Shown here piece by piece: positions 52,620 through 58,469 of a DNA stretch of 58,469 nt. The DNA comes from Clostridia bacterium (lineage in GTDB: Bacteria > Bacillota > Sulfobacillia > SLMV01), in NCBI GenBank assembly GCA_003551215.1, contig PUMD01000031.1, forward strand, positions 1 through 58,469, read 5' to 3'. The translations under genes and the position numbers were made by a program. The notes below the pieces were generated by a model. It was not told the origin of the DNA and ran no database searches. It saw only the letters and a program-made list of their open reading frames with translations. How positions within the stretch are numbered: the first letter of the stretch is position 1; each line of letters opens with the position of its first letter.

Positions 52620-53768
52620 TTGCAGATGATAAATGAGCGACGTTTGTCCGCATCCAATAAGATCAAATGGGTTACCGCACCAGTCAGACGCCTAGAGGAG
52701 ACAAAAAGACGGCTGCAGCGGCGTAGATTACTGGGGCTTTATCCTCCGTTTGTTCCATATACACCCGAGGAACGTACCAACCCCGAGACGGTCATGCAGG
52801 ATGCCAAAAGCACATTAGTGATAGCGGTACCGTACTGGCATCCCTCCGGAGAAGCAGACCAGGAAAGCTGGACAAACCACAACTATCCAATTAGCAGGAG
52901 CGCCTGGGGAGCAGACTATCATCAAGTGGTCCTTGACATCTTGCAGGCACTGCTGGTAGAGATGATTGGCCCGAAGGCGGCTGACAGAGCCCATGTTCAG
53001 GTGGATTCAGGTCCCCTGCAGGAGCGTGCCTTTGCCCAGTCGCTCGACCTGGGGATCCTTAAGGCCAACGGTTGCATTTACGTTGAACCCTTTGGTTCGT
53101 GGGTCTTTTTGGGTATAGCTGTGACTGACCGACCGCTTATAATTGAGGGCAATGCAACTTGGCTGGAATCTGAGACAAACTGCTATGACTGCCAAAAATG
53201 CATTGCAGCCTGTCCTACTGGCGCGCTTGTCGCTCCATATCGCATAAACTGGTACAGGTGCCTATCTTACCTTACTCAGAAACGCGGTTTTCTTCCCAGG
53301 GCCCTGCGTCGAGCCATAGGCGGTCGCCTGTTTGGCTGTGACACGTGTCAGCTGGTCTGTCCCGACAACCGTTCTGATACGCAGGGTTTGGTCGCATTTG
53401 CTCCGGATGAGAGTGATATCCGACCTGAGCTGACCGATATTCTAAAGATGAACGACAGCCAGTTCAAAAAAGCCTATGGAAACAAGAGTTTTGCATGGCG
53501 CGGCCGGAGAACACTTCAGCGGAACGCACTCATTGCTTTGGGAAATACCGCAGGCGCAGAATGTTTGCAGCAGATCGCTGCGTGTCTTAGCGACAGACGG
53601 CCCGTAATCCGAGGACATGCCGCGTGGGCCCTAGGTAGAATTGCTGAGAGAAACTGCCGCAGCCTTGGTGCCAAAATCTCGCGACAAATATCGGCGCTTG
53701 CATGCTCCGATGAAGATCGGCAGGTCAGGAAGGAAGCCGAAGCGGTTGCAGATATTCTGGCTACATGA
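52620..53768 (+). CDS. queG: tRNA epoxyqueuosine reductase
   Basis: AWGADYH, VDSGPLQERAFA, GSWVFLG, two Fe-S motifs (CYDCQKCIAACP and GCDTCQLVCP) and a HEAT-like RGHAAWALG. Confidence 0.92.
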   Translation: MQMINERRLSASNKIKWVTAPVRRLEETKRRLQRRRLLGLYPPFVPYTPEERTNPETVMQDAKSTLVIAVPYWHPSGEADQESWTNHNYPISRSAWGADYHQVVLDILQALLVEMIGPKAADRAHVQVDSGPLQERAFAQSLDLGILKANGCIYVEPFGSWVFLGIAVTDRPLIIEGNATWLESETNCYDCQKCIAACPTGALVAPYRINWYRCLSYLTQKRGFLPRALRRAIGGRLFGCDTCQLVCPDNRSDTQGLVAFAPDESDIRPELTDILKMNDSQFKKAYGNKSFAWRGRRTLQRNALIALGNTAGAECLQQIAACLSDRRPVIRGHAAWALGRIAERNCRSLGAKISRQISALACSDEDRQVRKEAEAVADILAT

Positions 53769-53911
53769 CTGGGTTAATCAGTAGTGAAATTGTCATGACT
53801 GCCGTTTTACTGTCGGTTAAATCGCTGTCCAGCTCAGCTGCAGATCATCCTGTTTTGCCGGATGGATCAATTAACATTCGCTAACTCCCGCGCGGTCTGG
53901 TGAGGGCAGCA

Positions 53912-53936
53912 AGGATACGATTCGCTGAAGTGGAAT
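53912..53936 (+). promoter_or_regulatory. Putative sigma-H-type promoter upstream of the AAA operon
   Basis: AGGA(53912)-N17-GAAT(53933) in the context GTGGAATTG. Confidence 0.35.
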
Positions 53937-54111
53937 TGAAAAGTACAGTGGCGCATAACTGTTCACCACTGTCATCTGGCATAATATTCTCAGCGGGAAA
54001 TATGCCGGATGAGCTTTTACTGAGGCGCGCGTCAGGATACATTAATGAAGTACAATGAAGTATCTGGTGGTACGGCCTTTGCTTGTTTAGTCTGATCTCT
54101 TGACTAAAAAG

Positions 54112-54120
54112 TGGTATAAT
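54112..54120 (+). promoter_or_regulatory. Extended -10 sigma-A promoter of the AAA operon
   Basis: TGgTATAAT about 43 nt before the ATG at 54163; no good -35 at the expected spacing. Confidence 0.5.
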
Positions 54121-54162
54121 TGAAACAAGCCGTGAGGAAAAAAGATCGGGAGGGCTGAATCG

Positions 54163-54975
54163 ATGGCTATCATTGTGGTGGGCGTGGCGGCCATACTGCT
54201 GGTAACTTACCTGGCAGTAGACTACGTTGCCACCCGATACCGCCATAGTCGGAAGTCTATCATGCTCCTTGGCGCCGAGGCAGTATTATCTCTCCTGCTG
54301 GGGCTGTTTCTGGCTCTGAGCCTGGTGGAGCTTCCCTGGTATTACCACGTTGTCTTTGGTCTGGTGATTGCGCTGCCCACGTATGCAGTGTTATCCCTGG
54401 TGACCGTTGAGACGTGGCGCATGTTGAAGCAGGGAAATTCAGATACTGAGCTGAGCCAGATGAGGACCCGTCTGCAGGAGCTGCAGGATGAAGCTGATCG
54501 TCTCGCCTGGCAAATCGATAACCTACGGCGCAAGAAAAAGGCTCTGGAGCAGGAGCACGATGAGGATCTGTTCCGGCAGCGAAAATTGAAAAACGAGATA
54601 GAGCAGTGGCAAAGCGGTGGGGGAATGGAACGCATCCGGAGCCTCCGAGTTGAGGACTGGAATTCGGAACTCTCTCAGCTGTCCACAGATCAGCTGCAGA
54701 AGAGAAAAAAGGAATTGGAATATGAGATTAATAAACCCAAAAACAGCGATCAGTACGATTCTTTGAAGGTTCAGATCGCGCTGGTAGATCTGGAGCTTTT
54801 AAACCGCAAGATGAGAGAACCAAATAAGGAACTTCGCGAGCTGAAGGAATCCGTTGAAAAGAGGGAGTCTCGCAGAAGTGAGGTAAATGGTGAAATACAG
54901 CAGCTGGATCAGCAGATCAGAGTGACGGTTCGGGACAGAGGAAGCACCTCAAGGAAAAAAGTGGAGCTAAAATAG
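54163..54975 (+). CDS. Membrane protein (about 3 TM) with a long C-terminal coiled coil
   Basis: Three hydrophobic segments in residues 1-85, then about 180 aa of E/K/Q/L-rich heptad pattern; RBS GGAGG. Confidence 0.85.
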   Translation: MAIIVVGVAAILLVTYLAVDYVATRYRHSRKSIMLLGAEAVLSLLLGLFLALSLVELPWYYHVVFGLVIALPTYAVLSLVTVETWRMLKQGNSDTELSQMRTRLQELQDEADRLAWQIDNLRRKKKALEQEHDEDLFRQRKLKNEIEQWQSGGGMERIRSLRVEDWNSELSQLSTDQLQKRKKELEYEINKPKNSDQYDSLKVQIALVDLELLNRKMREPNKELRELKESVEKRESRRSEVNGEIQQLDQQIRVTVRDRGSTSRKKVELK

Positions 54976-55023
54976 ACAGGGAAGGGAGGGTACTGACCAG
55001 ACAGTATAGCTGGTCAGGCTATC

Positions 55024-55464
55024 ATGAGTCATATCAGCACTTACAGCACGGACCTTCAGCTAAATCCTGTTAAAGGAGAGAGAGCAGCCAAGAATGATAC
55101 TTCCTGGCAGCTGTTCCGGGAAGCCTTGGAATCAGTTGCTGAGGAACATGGCGGCTACGTTGATGAGAAGATCTCCAACTACTTTGGCCATGAACGAGAA
55201 TGTACCTTTGCCCTTCGTGTTCCCCAGTTTCAGTATGGGCTTGGTATCGATGTTGATGAAAACACCGGCCGCGTTTCCTTTCTCTACGATTCGTATGGAG
55301 TGCGTGATGAGATCATCGAAACGCTCAAGGATGATGTAAAGCAGACCTTCACCACCCTGGCTGTCAGCCAGGCGCTGAATGACCTGAACTACTCGGTAGA
55401 ATTCGAGGAACAGGTCGATGACGAGACCGAAAGAAAGCGAATTTTGGTAAGAGGGGTGATGTGA
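55024..55464 (+). CDS. DUF1257 (Ycf35)-like protein
   Basis: N-terminal MSHISTY, G-I-x-V...F.YDSY, KQTF...A..L..YSV and a terminal beta strand match the DUF1257 layout; adjacent to DUF2997-like and AAA genes. Confidence 0.7.
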   Translation: MSHISTYSTDLQLNPVKGERAAKNDTSWQLFREALESVAEEHGGYVDEKISNYFGHERECTFALRVPQFQYGLGIDVDENTGRVSFLYDSYGVRDEIIETLKDDVKQTFTTLAVSQALNDLNYSVEFEEQVDDETERKRILVRGVM

Positions 55465-55703
55465 TGCCCCGCCAGGTTGATGTTGAAATAACCAGCGATG
55501 GTAAACTGCATCTTGAGTTCACCGGTTTTCCGGGAGAAGAATGTTTCGATGAGGCAGAGAAAATTCAGAAACTCCTGGCAGGTCTTGGTGTGCATGTAAA
55601 CGTTGATGATATACAGCGCAAGCCGGGTGGACAGATCGAGGCCGAAATAGGTCTCGATGAGAAAAGGGAGGAGAAGATTCCCACACAGGAGGGAAAGAAC
55701 TGA
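55464..55703 (+). CDS. DUF2997 family protein
   Basis: VEITSDGKLHLEFTGFPGEEC...IQKLL..LG signature; TGATG coupling to the upstream gene. Confidence 0.78.
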   Translation: MPRQVDVEITSDGKLHLEFTGFPGEECFDEAEKIQKLLAGLGVHVNVDDIQRKPGGQIEAEIGLDEKREEKIPTQEGKN

Positions 55704-55719
55704 CCCGGGAGGGGATGAA

Positions 55720-55935
55720 ATGCCTGCCCGCAGCGGTAGCGCCAAACAAACAAATGCTCTACTGCGTTCTCTGACCGGAGATGAGCAGAGTATGCTGGAG
55801 ATTACAGTAAGCAAGGATGGGACCTTGCATATCTACGAAGCCTATTCACAGCACGAAACTGAACAGTTGATAGCCAGGCTCAAAAACATGGGTATACAGG
55901 TGGAGATATTGTCCTCACCTTCACCCTGTGGCTGA
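55720..55935 (+). CDS. Small DUF2997-like protein ending in SPCG
   Basis: RBS GGAGGGG; LEITVSKDGTLHI...LKNMGIQVEI parallels the preceding protein. Confidence 0.65.
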   Translation: MPARSGSAKQTNALLRSLTGDEQSMLEITVSKDGTLHIYEAYSQHETEQLIARLKNMGIQVEILSSPSPCG

Positions 55936-55964
55936 GCTGTCGATAGAAGGGGGGTCGTACGGTA

Positions 55965-57683
55965 GTGAGTGTTCCTGATATCCAAGGACTGGATGACGGG
56001 TGGATATCGGAGGGGTTGCTGAAAAGACGCAGCAATTATTCACCAGTTATCCTTTTCGAGACTACCGACCCCAAGCGACTGGAGCAACTTAAGAGGTTTG
56101 TCCTCACCCGGGAATCGTGCAAGGACTACTCCAGGGTTATGGTCTATGACCAGTGGCGCGGCCTGTTTAAGCTGGAGGAGGAGGGTGGACAGCTGGTCAG
56201 TACAGACTATCAGCGCCAGCAACCAGATACTGCTTTGGGTCGACGGGTGGTAGGTGGAGGTGACGGTTCCACGAGCCGCCAACAGCTGGCGCATGTGAAA
56301 TCGGTCCTCAAGGAAGTTGATGGAAAACTGAAAGAAGAAAAAACCTTGTTTATCATACAGAACCTGTCGGAAAACCGGGAGTGGGAAACGGGACTGCAGG
56401 CTGCCTTACGCTCATGGGCCACAGACAGTGAACTTATAACCAAGGGTTCTACGATTTTTCTGCAGACCGCAGATGTGGATTCACTTCTGGACGAGTTCAC
56501 CAAGGAACTTGTGGTGGTTCTGGACGTCGACCCTTCCTCAGAAGCTGAACGAAGATACATCATAGAAACAATAGCCCGGGAGCTCGATATCGAGCTTTAT
56601 CATCAGAAGCTGGCTGAGCTTGTCCTGGCCACAGCTGGTTTGAACTTGCATCAACTGGAGAGCATCATCCTGGAGTCCTATTTTTCCGAACATCAGTTCA
56701 ATGTGGGTAAAGTCAAAGATCTGAAATCTGAGCTGGTCAAGAAATCAGGAACCCTGGAAATAAGGGAACCGCAGTACAGCTTCCTCGATGTGGGTGGTTA
56801 TCAGGTTATTAAGGACTTTGTTCGCAAGTATATCATAAACGTCCTGGAGAATACGGAAAGAGCAGATCATTTTTCTCTTCCCCTGCCTAAAGGTATATTG
56901 TTCTTTGGGCCTCCGGGAACGGGCAAGAGTCTTTTCGCCAATGCCCTTGCCAGCGAAATTCAGCTGCCGTTTATCCGGCTGCTCACGGAGAACATTTACT
57001 CAAAATGGTTCGGTGAATCGGGGCAACGCATGAAGAACGCTATTCAGATGGCGGAGAAGATGTCTCCGGCTATCGTGTTCATAGATGAGATAGACCGATT
57101 CGGCAAGCGTTCATCCGGTTATGGGGACTCGGCCAGCGCAGAGAGTAAAAGAGTCTTCTCCCAATTTCTCGAGTGGCTTGGTGAGCCAGACAGGCAGGCC
57201 ATAGTGGTGGGGACGACGAATGTAACCGAGCAGCTGGATGAGGCTTTCTTGCGGACAGGCAGGTTTGATTACAAGATTCCATTTCTGTATCCCGGTGATG
57301 AGGCCCGTATAGAGGTTCTGGCGGTCCATTTGGGCTTGATGGATGGAAGCACTAAGAAGAAGGCTCCGGTGGCTCTGGATGATGAAGAGGTAGTCGAATT
57401 TCTCCGCGAGGAGATAGTTCCCAGGACTCAGCATTTTTCCTGCGCAGAGCTTGAAGAGCTGGTCCTGCGGGCAAAGCGGATTTCCTTTGATAGAGATACC
57501 TCTGCGCTGGAACCGAAGGATTTCATAGAAGCTGCCAGGACCTTTCGGATAGATCAGCGCCAGAGAAAGCGGACAATTCGCGACATGATGTCTCAGGCTC
57601 AGAGTTTCACCGATGATCAGCAGTTTCTCGATACGCTGGAAGAAGAGATGGAGGTTTCTGTGGAAATAGTGTCTGATGATTAG
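55965..57683 (+). CDS. AAA family ATPase (Ycf46-like layout: degenerate N-terminal module plus active AAA)
   Basis: DVGG, Walker A GPPGTGKS, pore loop SKWFGES, Walker B FIDEID, SRH TTN..LDEAFLRTGRFD and FSCAELE; the N-terminal ~250 aa has no intact Walker A. Confidence 0.92.
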   Translation: MSVPDIQGLDDGWISEGLLKRRSNYSPVILFETTDPKRLEQLKRFVLTRESCKDYSRVMVYDQWRGLFKLEEEGGQLVSTDYQRQQPDTALGRRVVGGGDGSTSRQQLAHVKSVLKEVDGKLKEEKTLFIIQNLSENREWETGLQAALRSWATDSELITKGSTIFLQTADVDSLLDEFTKELVVVLDVDPSSEAERRYIIETIARELDIELYHQKLAELVLATAGLNLHQLESIILESYFSEHQFNVGKVKDLKSELVKKSGTLEIREPQYSFLDVGGYQVIKDFVRKYIINVLENTERADHFSLPLPKGILFFGPPGTGKSLFANALASEIQLPFIRLLTENIYSKWFGESGQRMKNAIQMAEKMSPAIVFIDEIDRFGKRSSGYGDSASAESKRVFSQFLEWLGEPDRQAIVVGTTNVTEQLDEAFLRTGRFDYKIPFLYPGDEARIEVLAVHLGLMDGSTKKKAPVALDDEEVVEFLREEIVPRTQHFSCAELEELVLRAKRISFDRDTSALEPKDFIEAARTFRIDQRQRKRTIRDMMSQAQSFTDDQQFLDTLEEEMEVSVEIVSDD

Positions 57684-57721
57684 GGTAAAGGTCCAGCCAG
57701 TCTGGCGGCTGGACCTTTACC
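57684..57721 (+). terminator. Strong hairpin ending the AAA operon
   Basis: Perfect 15-bp inverted repeat GGTAAAGGTCCAGCC / GGCTGGACCTTTACC immediately after the stop codon. Confidence 0.7.
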
Positions 57722-58400
57722 TCGCAGCGGTGAATAGGTCTCATCCCAGCAATGTCCAGGTCAGGGTTTGAGGGGATACTCCAAACTCGCTTCAAACTTC
57801 AACGAGCTGCCTTCCTTGCCAGCCATGCTCATATTGACATTGATCTGGGAGGTATCTCTGGTCGCCAGTTTATCGCTGCTTTGCTCGAGGATCTCGCATA
57901 TGCCATCTCCCTGGCAGTTTCCAGGAACACTCATTTGCTGGCCTTTTCTTATGCATTCACCGTCTTCGGTGAGATTACACTTGGAAAGTAGTAGACTTCT
58001 CCACTGCTACCATCCTCTCTGACCGGCTCTGGCGCCGGGGAAAACGAGCAAGATTTTGACGGCAAATCCATCTCAACTTCGTCGGTCCCGGGGGTCTACG
58101 GGCCCTTGAGTTTGCTGCCGACGCAATACTGAGTCTCTAAAACGGTGACCAGCCTGCCGCAGCAGACGACAAACGCCTATGCCTGCCCATCTGGCAGGAG
58201 TGAGTCTTCCCATCGACTGCCCGATACTTGCCGGTTAACCGATCTTCACCCCCCTATAAAAGCTGAATAGCCGCATAACAAGGGGCCAGATGGCCTTTTT
58301 TGTGATAATACCTTGTCTAATGACATATATCCTATATCCCCTTGTAATGCTATCATATTGAGGATATAATTGTCTCAGTACCCGGATTGGAGTGATACTC

Positions 58401-58469
58401 GTGTTCGTCAAAAAGTCCTGGAGCGAATACAACGGCAAAAAGTACGTCTCCCATCACATCGCCCGCGGC
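58401..58469 (+). mobile_element. N-terminus of a CDS running off the window, possibly an IS1634-family transposase
   Basis: GGAG RBS, GTG start, translation MFVKKSWSEYNGKKYVSHHIARG, which resembles the MF(I/V)K...GK.Y.. start of IS1634 transposases; preceded by an AT-rich stretch with TATAAT. Only 23 codons are visible. Confidence 0.4.

Follow-up and report, generated by a model that had tools for sequence, protein, structure and literature searches.

Close to the end of the stretch analysed here, the 58,469-nucleotide (nt) contig PUMD01000031.1 of a Clostridia bacterium (assembly GCA_003551215.1; its full length is referred to below as the window), five co-directional genes, here named P1 to P5, form an operon that combines a membrane protein, three small proteins and an AAA+ ATPase. 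These five genes were shown to be one conserved, co-inherited unit, kept across the class of the host and in a distant metagenomic lineage. Our best explanation, which we hold at about even confidence, is that the products of the operon form an AAA+ machine for protein remodelling that is associated with the membrane and is of the Ycf46/Ycf35/DUF2997 kind. The composition of the cassette is well supported, and its mechanism is an inference.

The association of a Ycf46-type ATPase with DUF1257 (Ycf35) and DUF2997 proteins is known already, being visible in databases and in cyanobacterial operons; what is new is the membrane protein P1, the small protein P4 with its Cys-Gly end, and an ATPase subfamily of its own, in which the first module is degenerate. 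A first interpretation of the window, made from its letters without database searches (the sequence-only reading), had singled out the operon as a candidate for an undescribed system and had named no assigned mechanism for the DUF1257, DUF2997 and Ycf46 families. The latter statement agrees with the searchable full-text literature (supplements lay outside the search), in whose available text we found neither an account of the five-gene cassette nor a mechanism for any of the three families. The former stands for the cassette as a whole and not for the gene association itself, which is already on record, although uncharacterised. The cassette unites the Ycf46-type, Ycf35 and DUF2997 families in one compact operon of a heterotroph and adds a membrane partner to them; it offers a bacterial handle on, and a testable model system for, plastid and cyanobacterial genes that have long been unexplained.

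A conserved five-gene cassette

The genes and the two modules of the ATPase are laid out in the window as follows:

54163–54975, + strand: P1, 270 amino acids (aa)
55024–55464, + strand: P2, 146 aa
55461–55703, + strand: P3, 80 aa
55720–55935, + strand: P4, 71 aa from the ATG at 55720 (the open reading frame (ORF) as listed is 55657–55935, 92 aa)
55965–57683, + strand: P5, 572 aa, GTG start
55965–56750, + strand: N-terminal module of P5 (residues 1–262), a degenerate AAA+ fold that lacks Walker A and B
56751–57683, + strand: C-terminal module of P5, an intact classical AAA ATPase with lid and conserved C-terminal DD-x-x-F motif

The tight, co-directional packing described in the sequence-only reading was confirmed in the ORF listing (54163–57683 of the window). 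P1 and P2 are separated by 48 nt, the start of P3 overlaps the stop of P2, and P3 is followed by P4 after 16 nt and P4 by P5 after 29 nt. For P4, the ATG at 55720 is the likely start, because GGGAGGGG (a Shine-Dalgarno sequence) lies 5 nt upstream of it and the orthologue alignment begins nearby, just 5′ of the conserved core.

A full-length P5 orthologue (E ≤ 1e-190, 56–86% identity) was found in 24 of 40 related genomes, comprising 10 of 11 genomes of the same family and 14 of 29 from other families in the class. Twenty loci were fetched, and 18 of them were usable, leaving out one cut at a contig end (L026) and one holding a paralogue (L028). The gene-neighbourhood survey of these loci bore out the linkage on which the sequence-only reading had placed weight, that of the membrane-spanning helical gene (P1) and the Cys-Gly protein gene (P4) with the trio of P2, P3 and P5: all 18 loci contain P1, P2 and P3 (the P3 of L016 was recognised by eye and the other 17 by tblastn), P4 is present in 17 of them, and the gene order never varies. 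A queG-like ORF precedes the cassette in sister genera, as it does in the window, and the flanks are different in other families. The source names of the homologues are of the type ‘Bacillota bacterium’, ‘Thermaerobacterales bacterium’ and similar. In an even sample of the phylum, a broad P2 profile matched 5 of 401 genomes, all of this class, and PF06868, the Pfam family for DUF1257, matched one of 301 genomes of a phylum sample.

A metagenome scan with more distant P2 relatives recovered four further loci (L120 to L123). The locus L122 encodes, in this order, a P1-like protein (local profile hidden Markov model (HMM), E 2e-28), an extra small membrane protein, P2-like and P3-like proteins, a protein in the position of P4 that aligns to P4 (prob 76.8), and a P5-family ATPase (local HMM of the family, E about 1e-216; of its N-terminal module, E 1.7e-59). 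L120 and L121 each retain part of the cassette order, and L123 was too short. The extra membrane gene of this distant cassette, between the P1-like and P2-like genes, encodes 82–90 aa. Around the distant cassette (L120, 7–2184; L122, 4671–6269) we also observed a HerA/DUF87-type ATPase of 725 aa with a 213-aa gene upstream, and a WD40 protein of 532 aa downstream.

P5 is a pseudo-tandem AAA+ ATPase

The C-terminal module of P5 carries the intact Walker A and B motifs, second region of homology and aromatic pore loop (SKWFGES) that had been noted from the sequence, as borne out by motif positions between residues 315 and 417: Walker A (GPPGTGKS) at 315, the pore loop KWFG, within SKWFGES, at 347, Walker B (IVFIDE) at 370 and TTN...RTGR at 417. 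P5 matched PF00004 with E 2.1e-33, its residue F556 was invariant in a 9-sequence alignment of the P5 family, and the best PDB sequence matches of the active module were VAT, Cdc48 and p97 D2 (E 2.4e-63 and below). A search with residues 1–260 of P5 gave about 107 clusters, among them an archaeal relative (P0176, ‘Thermoproteota archaeon’).

N-terminal to residue 315, no Walker A pattern was found in P5. An AlphaFold2 model of residues 1–262 (predicted local distance difference test (pLDDT) 83, predicted template modelling score (pTM) 0.79) gave 110 PDB matches in Foldseek at E ≤ 0.001, with template modelling (TM) scores of 0.45–0.54. Those listed were all AAA+ proteins, and they include RFC, clamp loader, Rpt, Msp1, RuvBL and Rubisco activase. 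The fold of this model confirms the degenerate N-terminal module that had been proposed earlier, and P5 is here called a pseudo-tandem AAA+ ATPase because its N-terminal half folds as AAA+ without nucleotide motifs, ahead of the intact module.

With Cdc48, p97 and VAT, P5 shares an active module that is nearest to VAT and p97 D2, the KWFG pore loop and a tandem AAA+ layout. However, the first module of P5 has lost its nucleotide motifs, leaving a single Walker A, and no N-terminal substrate-binding domain was found ahead of this module, the matches listed for the 262-aa N-terminal model all being AAA+. The score of P5 against the NCBIfam model TIGR01243 was 122 bits, far under the cut-off of 802.65, placing P5 outside that family. 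Likewise, P5 differs from Vps4/CdvC in that it reached 100.2 bits against NF041006, through the AAA module only, where the cut-off is 650, and in that no MIT family was found in the Pfam scan. Scores against the NCBIfam PAN and FtsH models were also far below their cut-offs.

Ties to the ycf46 and ycf35 gene clusters

Ycf46, Ycf35 and DUF2997 occur widely in cyanobacteria and in the plastids of algae. The operon of ycf46 belongs there to those that stress induces most strongly, and its function is stated to be unknown (PMC7496141, PMC13683863, PMC13060386). This operon, slr0373-slr0374-slr0376 or Synpcc7942_0416-0418, reacts to stresses of many kinds, its function being likewise given as unknown (PMC7496141, PMC13683863, bioRxiv 10.1101/2025.07.21.665879); Synpcc7942_0416 is copG-like and 0417 is Ycf46 (PMC13683863). 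In a separate arrangement described in PMC4284462, DUF2997, ycf35 (DUF1257) and the ferredoxin gene fed7 cluster together in cyanobacteria as ‘cluster g’.

A genome scan with the P5 family alignment relied on the generic patterns of Walker A and B, and almost all of the 80 loci that it gave were generic AAA genes. An AAA ORF was scored in 78 of the 80, and the FtsH-, PAN- and Cdc48-like ones served as the control set. A DUF1257-type neighbour was found in two of the 78 scored loci (L045 and L107), and beside none of the FtsH-, PAN- or Cdc48-like AAA genes. The first of these, from an uncultured cyanobacterium, encodes a 119-aa RHH-like (CopG-like) protein, a 524-aa AAA protein and a 116-aa PF06868 protein (81.4 bits). 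Its layout matches that of the published ycf46 operon (copG-like, then Ycf46), and from this gene order we infer that its AAA gene is the ycf46 orthologue. The second, from an uncultured Gemmatimonadota (L107, 3350–7497), encodes a 326-aa DUF1257-like/DUF2997-like fusion, a 192-aa protein, a 661-aa AAA protein and a Fer4_12/radical-SAM activase-type protein; the 326-aa protein has a coiled-coil N-terminus and no Pfam match, and was recognised by local HMMs only (E 6.5e-6 and 1.5e-4). Proteins of the DUF1257 type adjoin three separate AAA lineages, those of P5, L045 and L107. The co-occurrence of DUF1257, DUF2997 and Ycf46-type proteins, which the sequence-only reading had named for cyanobacteria, plastids and other prokaryotes, is in line with the L045 locus and with the published DUF2997-ycf35 cluster (PMC4284462).

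P5 has the Ycf46-type layout of one active C-terminal AAA module behind an N-terminal part of 230–260 aa, with a DUF1257-type gene beside it, and the P5 family aligned over its full length with the L045 AAA protein (hhalign prob 99.95). The AAA phylogeny that had been proposed earlier as a check was built as a quick IQ-TREE of 109 AAA modules, in which group labels come from domain layout only. The P5 family formed one clade with support of 97 in the Shimodaira-Hasegawa-like approximate likelihood ratio test (SH-aLRT), appeared as sister to L045 (a grouping weighed below) and fell outside the FtsH/PAN/Cdc48-like clade (SH-aLRT 98). Because homology of the N-terminal module is not detectable alone, P5 is tied to Ycf46 by its AAA module, by the overall architecture, by the neighbouring DUF1257 gene and by this quick tree.

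Compared with the ycf46 stress operon, the cassette has in common an AAA protein of about 520–570 aa with a single active C-terminal module and, as seen in L045, a DUF1257-type gene beside it. In contrast, the window cassette has no CopG-like gene and adds P1, a DUF2997 gene and the Cys-Gly mini-protein P4; its P2 is too diverged for PF06868, and its host belongs to a non-photosynthetic Bacillota lineage. With the DUF2997-ycf35-fed7 cluster it shares the adjacency of DUF1257 and DUF2997 (the order in the window is P2-P3, and fusions of both exist), whereas it lacks a ferredoxin gene and has an AAA ATPase as partner, in addition to P1 and P4.

P2, P3 and P4, three small proteins that appear to be related

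P2 of the window did not match PF06868 in Pfam scans (gathering cut-off 22.2 bits), and among its orthologues two of 14 did so, with a best E of 0.017. A profile of the 14 P2 orthologues retrieved 357 representatives among 1.84 billion proteins, and 147 of the best 150 of these were scanned as the P2 family. PF06868 was found at E ≤ 0.01 in 41 of the 147, and any other family in two at most. In addition, P2 aligned from residue 1 with the DUF1257 protein of L045 (hhalign prob 86.8, E 4.3e-6, 97 columns). The N-terminus of P2 reads MSH, which a preprint describes as typical of, or a hallmark for, Ycf35 (PMC13060386); among the 147 family members S2 is retained in 135 and H3 in 69. Of the earlier suggestion that P2 is DUF1257-like, the part that concerns profiles stands and a direct PF06868 match is absent, so that P2 is, at profile level only, a divergent member of the Ycf35/DUF1257 superfamily.

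P3 scored 22.2 bits (E 1.3e-4) against PF11211, the family of DUF2997, and 21.4 bits in the genome scan, below the gathering cut-off of 24.1; all 17 P3 orthologues matched this family at E ≤ 1 (best 3.8e-6), in agreement with its previous description as DUF2997-like. P3 shows the DUF2997 layout of a beta-hairpin, a G-[FY]-x-G-x-x-C loop and a helix. Its own loop, G-F-x-G-x-x-C, reads TGFPGEEC, with G22, F23 and C28 invariant, and the equivalent loop of a protein above the PF11211 cut-off (L034, 43.1 bits) is EGFTGTSC. P3 is therefore a borderline, divergent DUF2997 member.

P4 is without the G-F-x-G-x-x-C loop and matched no Pfam family, either in the window or in any of 16 orthologues. The P3 and P4 families aligned with each other in profile-profile comparison (hhalign prob 81.6, E 1.1e-5, 38 columns), by which P4 would be a DUF2997-like mini-protein; the same assignment in the sequence-only reading finds support at this level only. 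The chain of P4 ends in Pro-Cys-Gly-COOH, and the Cys and Gly are invariant and strictly terminal in 16 of 16 aligned orthologues and two more. PDB sequence searches with the profiles of P2, P3 and the N-terminal module of P5 returned nothing below E 0.02.

Natural fusions of P2 and P3, 214–258 aa in length, make up at least 13 of the 147 scanned P2-profile hits, and a canonical DUF1257+DUF2997 fusion was found in the genome G307. A protein of 271 aa (P0198) joins P2, P3 and P4 and retains the Cys-Gly end. Given these P2+P3 and P2+P3+P4 fusions, which follow the same order as the cassette, P2, P3 and P4 probably work as one unit. The fusions show which of the small proteins belong together, and their order as P2, P3, P4.

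The AlphaFold2 model of the triple fusion P0198 (pTM 0.72) had a pLDDT of 90 or more over residues 1–190, the P2 and P3 parts, and the P4 part, which was without alignment depth, was poorly modelled. By secondary structure in this model, P3 is beta-beta-alpha-beta and P4 beta-beta-alpha. The best fold matches of the P2-P3 model were the N-domain of spermine synthase (Z 11.8) and KA1-type domains (Z 8–10), and Foldseek gave weak matches only (TM ≤ 0.27). P2, P3 and P4 appear to be structurally related small alpha+beta proteins. As a separate observation, free P3 and P4 sequences fell on the beta-hairpin-plus-helix core of P2 in a MAFFT alignment; this hints that the three may share a structural unit, that DUF1257 may contain a DUF2997-like unit and that all three may derive from one repeat.

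The membrane protein P1

By hydropathy, P1 has three hydrophobic segments (residues ~1–23, 32–58 and 61–83), followed by a 185-residue tail rich in E, K, R, Q and L, which agrees with the earlier description of a long helical protein with three transmembrane segments at the head of the operon. The tail contains the motif W-x-x-GGG-x-AR-x-R-x-x-KV-x-x-W, and the protein closes with a conserved [IV]-x-L-x end. In an alignment of 17 sequences W149, R157, R159, W166 and L269 were invariant and G154 nearly so. From the positive-inside rule, the helical tail would face the cytoplasm. No Pfam family was found over its cut-off in P1, and its homologues were without a Pfam domain. PF04012 (PspA/IM30) was not matched in the Pfam scan, and P1 showed no profile similarity to the PspA-like protein encoded in L028 (hhalign prob 0.17), on which ground a kinship with PspA was set aside.

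A proposed membrane-associated remodelling machine and its alternatives

In the machine that we propose, P2, P3 and P4 would join in a single unit that serves the P5 ring as an adaptor or is its regulated substrate, and ATP hydrolysis in the second module of P5 would power threading. The ring would engage one of two handles, the Pro-Cys-Gly at the very end of P4 or the conserved tail at the C-terminus of P1, and P1 itself would either anchor the machine to the membrane or be the client that is unfolded or extracted. By analogy with the cyanobacterial ycf46 operon, its setting is likely to be stress-linked proteostasis or regulation rather than defence.

A more specific and more far-reaching form of this proposal, which we consider doubtful, holds that P2, P3 and P4 form a composite alpha+beta platform, that its free Pro-Cys-Gly tail or the conserved tail of P1 enters the pseudo-tandem ring, and that the cassette is an as yet undescribed prokaryotic machine for membrane-protein extraction or switching and the complete ancestor of what cyanobacteria and plastids retain as the orphan genes ycf46 and ycf35. 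If this were true, solving the cassette would give a mechanism to both ycf46 and ycf35.

Several results weigh against the proposed machine or against its link to Ycf46. The N-terminal module of P5 (17 sequences) showed no detectable similarity to the single N-terminal sequence of the L045 AAA protein (hhalign prob 0.16, E 0.36), and in the quick tree the sister grouping of the P5 clade with L045 had an SH-aLRT of 88, sits on a long branch and is unsure. The cassette is dispensable, given that 16 of the 40 relatives examined lack it, and P4 is absent in one genome that has the other genes (L023). In the distant metagenomic lineage Cys-Gly is not terminal, the Pro-Cys being kept and followed by 11–13 residues. 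Finally, the fold matches of the P2-P3 model reflect a common alpha+beta arrangement and assign no function. Complex predictions of P2, P3 and P4, each with the first module of P5, gave 0.30, 0.31 and 0.36 at a mark of 0.32, with one control at 0.38, and count neither way.

Two further explanations are unlikely, to a similar degree. The first is a special case of the remodelling machine, an ESCRT-III/Vps4-like pair in which P1 would use its helical tail to polymerise on the membrane and P5 would take the polymer apart. The length of this tail and its conserved motif would suit such a role. In addition, genes of another AAA clade, whose overall layout is the same, adjoin PspA/IM30 genes in the genome G031 and in an Oscillospiraceae metagenome-assembled genome (MAG), so that pairs of an AAA protein and a helical membrane protein do occur in the phylum. 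However, P1 has no profile similarity to the PspA type found next to these ATPases, P5 has no MIT domain and remains at 100 bits against the CdvC cut-off of 650, and a pair of this kind leaves P2 to P4 unexplained.

Members of this different AAA family, 562 aa long with the AAA module in the C-terminal half, are each followed directly by the product of a PspA/IM30 gene, once in a complete genome from the same class (L028, G031:C1; 3431–5119 and 5144–5872) and once in the Oscillospiraceae MAG (L100; 5653–7341 and 7393–8226). PF04012 matched the partner with 43.5 bits in L100 and with 30.5 bits, below the cut-off, in L028, and the two ATPases group in the quick tree. They may represent a Vps4-like/ESCRT-III-like pair in Bacillota.

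The second is a redox or metal (Fe-S) module, in which cysteines of P3 and P4 (and P2) carry or sense a metal cluster or disulfide that the ATPase loads, releases or resets. The invariant Cys in the G-F-x-G-x-x-C loop of P3 and the invariant penultimate Cys of P4 are consistent with such a module, as are the ferredoxin gene fed7 in the cyanobacterial DUF2997 and ycf35 cluster (PMC4284462), the Fer4_12 radical-SAM activase-type gene 3′ of the AAA gene in L107, and the response of the cyanobacterial ycf46 operon to oxidative stress, as stated in PMC7496141, PMC13683863 and bioRxiv 10.1101/2025.07.21.665879. Against it, only one Cys is conserved in each of the window proteins, a CxxC pattern is absent from them, and the cassette contains no Fe-S, ferredoxin or thioredoxin gene. 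The cysteine position of P2 holds Cys in just 58 of the 147 family members and Val in 42; a three-cysteine metal site composed of P2, P3 and P4 was rejected on this ground, as the P2 cysteine is not conserved family-wide, and the redox module survives as a minor rival.

Least probable, and in our view very unlikely, is an anti-phage or conflict system, in which the AAA ATPase would sense infection and the membrane protein, a holin-like effector, would kill the cell or arrest it. PADLOC models of IetA matched P5 (best E 9.4e-28), NCBIfam IteA gave 80.4 bits, the cassette is patchily distributed (24 of 40 related genomes), faint matches to holin families were seen for P1 (PF23778, E 0.044) and for the distant P1-like protein (PF07332, E 0.0045), and a HerA/DUF87 ATPase and a WD40 protein flank the distant cassette. 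Yet the IetA and IteA matches cover the generic AAA module only, far below the family cut-off of 510 bits (NF042959), and the cassette has no IetS or other protease partner gene and differs from IetAS in its remaining partners and genomic setting. P1 to P4 matched no PADLOC model at E < 0.01. The inheritance looks vertical, given P5 identities of 56–63% across families of the class and the adjacency to queG in sister genera, and the flanking genes are housekeeping genes. Neither the 50,697 phage records nor the 72,556 plasmids searched with P2 gave a match, PHROGs gave none for P2 to P5, and the two patterns applied to IMG/VR yielded no relative of the first module of P5. The defence role that the sequence-only reading had listed among its options was accordingly not borne out, as nothing in the PADLOC, phage, plasmid and IMG/VR searches points to defence.

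Regulatory signals and other features of the locus

Three signals accompany the cassette in the window:

54112–54120, + strand: extended −10, TGgTATAAT, read from the sequence
54035–54049, + strand: conserved upstream element GGATACATTAATGAA, about 65 nt 5′ of the −10, from a three-genus comparison
57684–57698/57707–57721, + strand: closing hairpin with a 15-bp stem (100% complementary) and an 8-nt loop, directly 3′ of the P5 stop

Both the operon’s own extended −10 and its perfect closing hairpin, as described previously, were found again. The extended −10 is not in the output of the consensus promoter scan because it has no −35 match. The same motif, TGGTATAAT, recurs upstream of the cassette in one sister genus (L029), and in a second (L032) TATAAT is present at a shifted position. 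Two further genera of the family retain the upstream element GGATACATTAATGAA, in the forms GGGTACATTAACGA and GGCTACATTGAATAA, within intergenic DNA that has otherwise diverged; the element is a possible operator or regulator site. The closing hairpin has a minimum free energy of −32.4 kcal/mol (z = −5.0), and none of 200 shuffles folded as well. No T-run (U-tract) follows it, and the terminator scan did not list it; it is likely a terminator or a 3′-end stabiliser. In Rfam, no family was found within 53600–58469.

The flanks of the cassette in the window are of housekeeping type (GH18/SLH, creatininase, thioesterase, OYE, aminotransferase, lgt, rlmD-like, queG). The stretch was found in one sequencing run, a DNA run from a salt-lake metagenome; no RNA run was listed. 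On the − strand, a 121-aa ORF without Pfam match (53881–54246) lies antisense to the promoter region and the start of P1 and is probably not a gene.

At the junction of P4 and P5, read-through of the P4 stop codon into P5 was ruled out: in 6 of 15 judgeable loci the two genes are in the same frame with one stop between them, which is about the one-in-three expected by chance, and the window pair is not in frame. In three loci (L016, L021 and L023) the sequence from the preceding stop to the conserved N-terminal motif of the P5 orthologue contains no ATG, GTG or TTG, and in each a CTG lies 8–9 nt 3′ of a G-rich stretch; these orthologues probably use CTG start codons. Between P1 and P2, an 8-bp inverted repeat with a 9-nt loop (54993–55017, CTGACCAG ... 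CTGGTCAG) was observed just 3′ of a GGGAGGG stretch and just 5′ of the P2 start, where it might affect P2 translation or processing of the mRNA.

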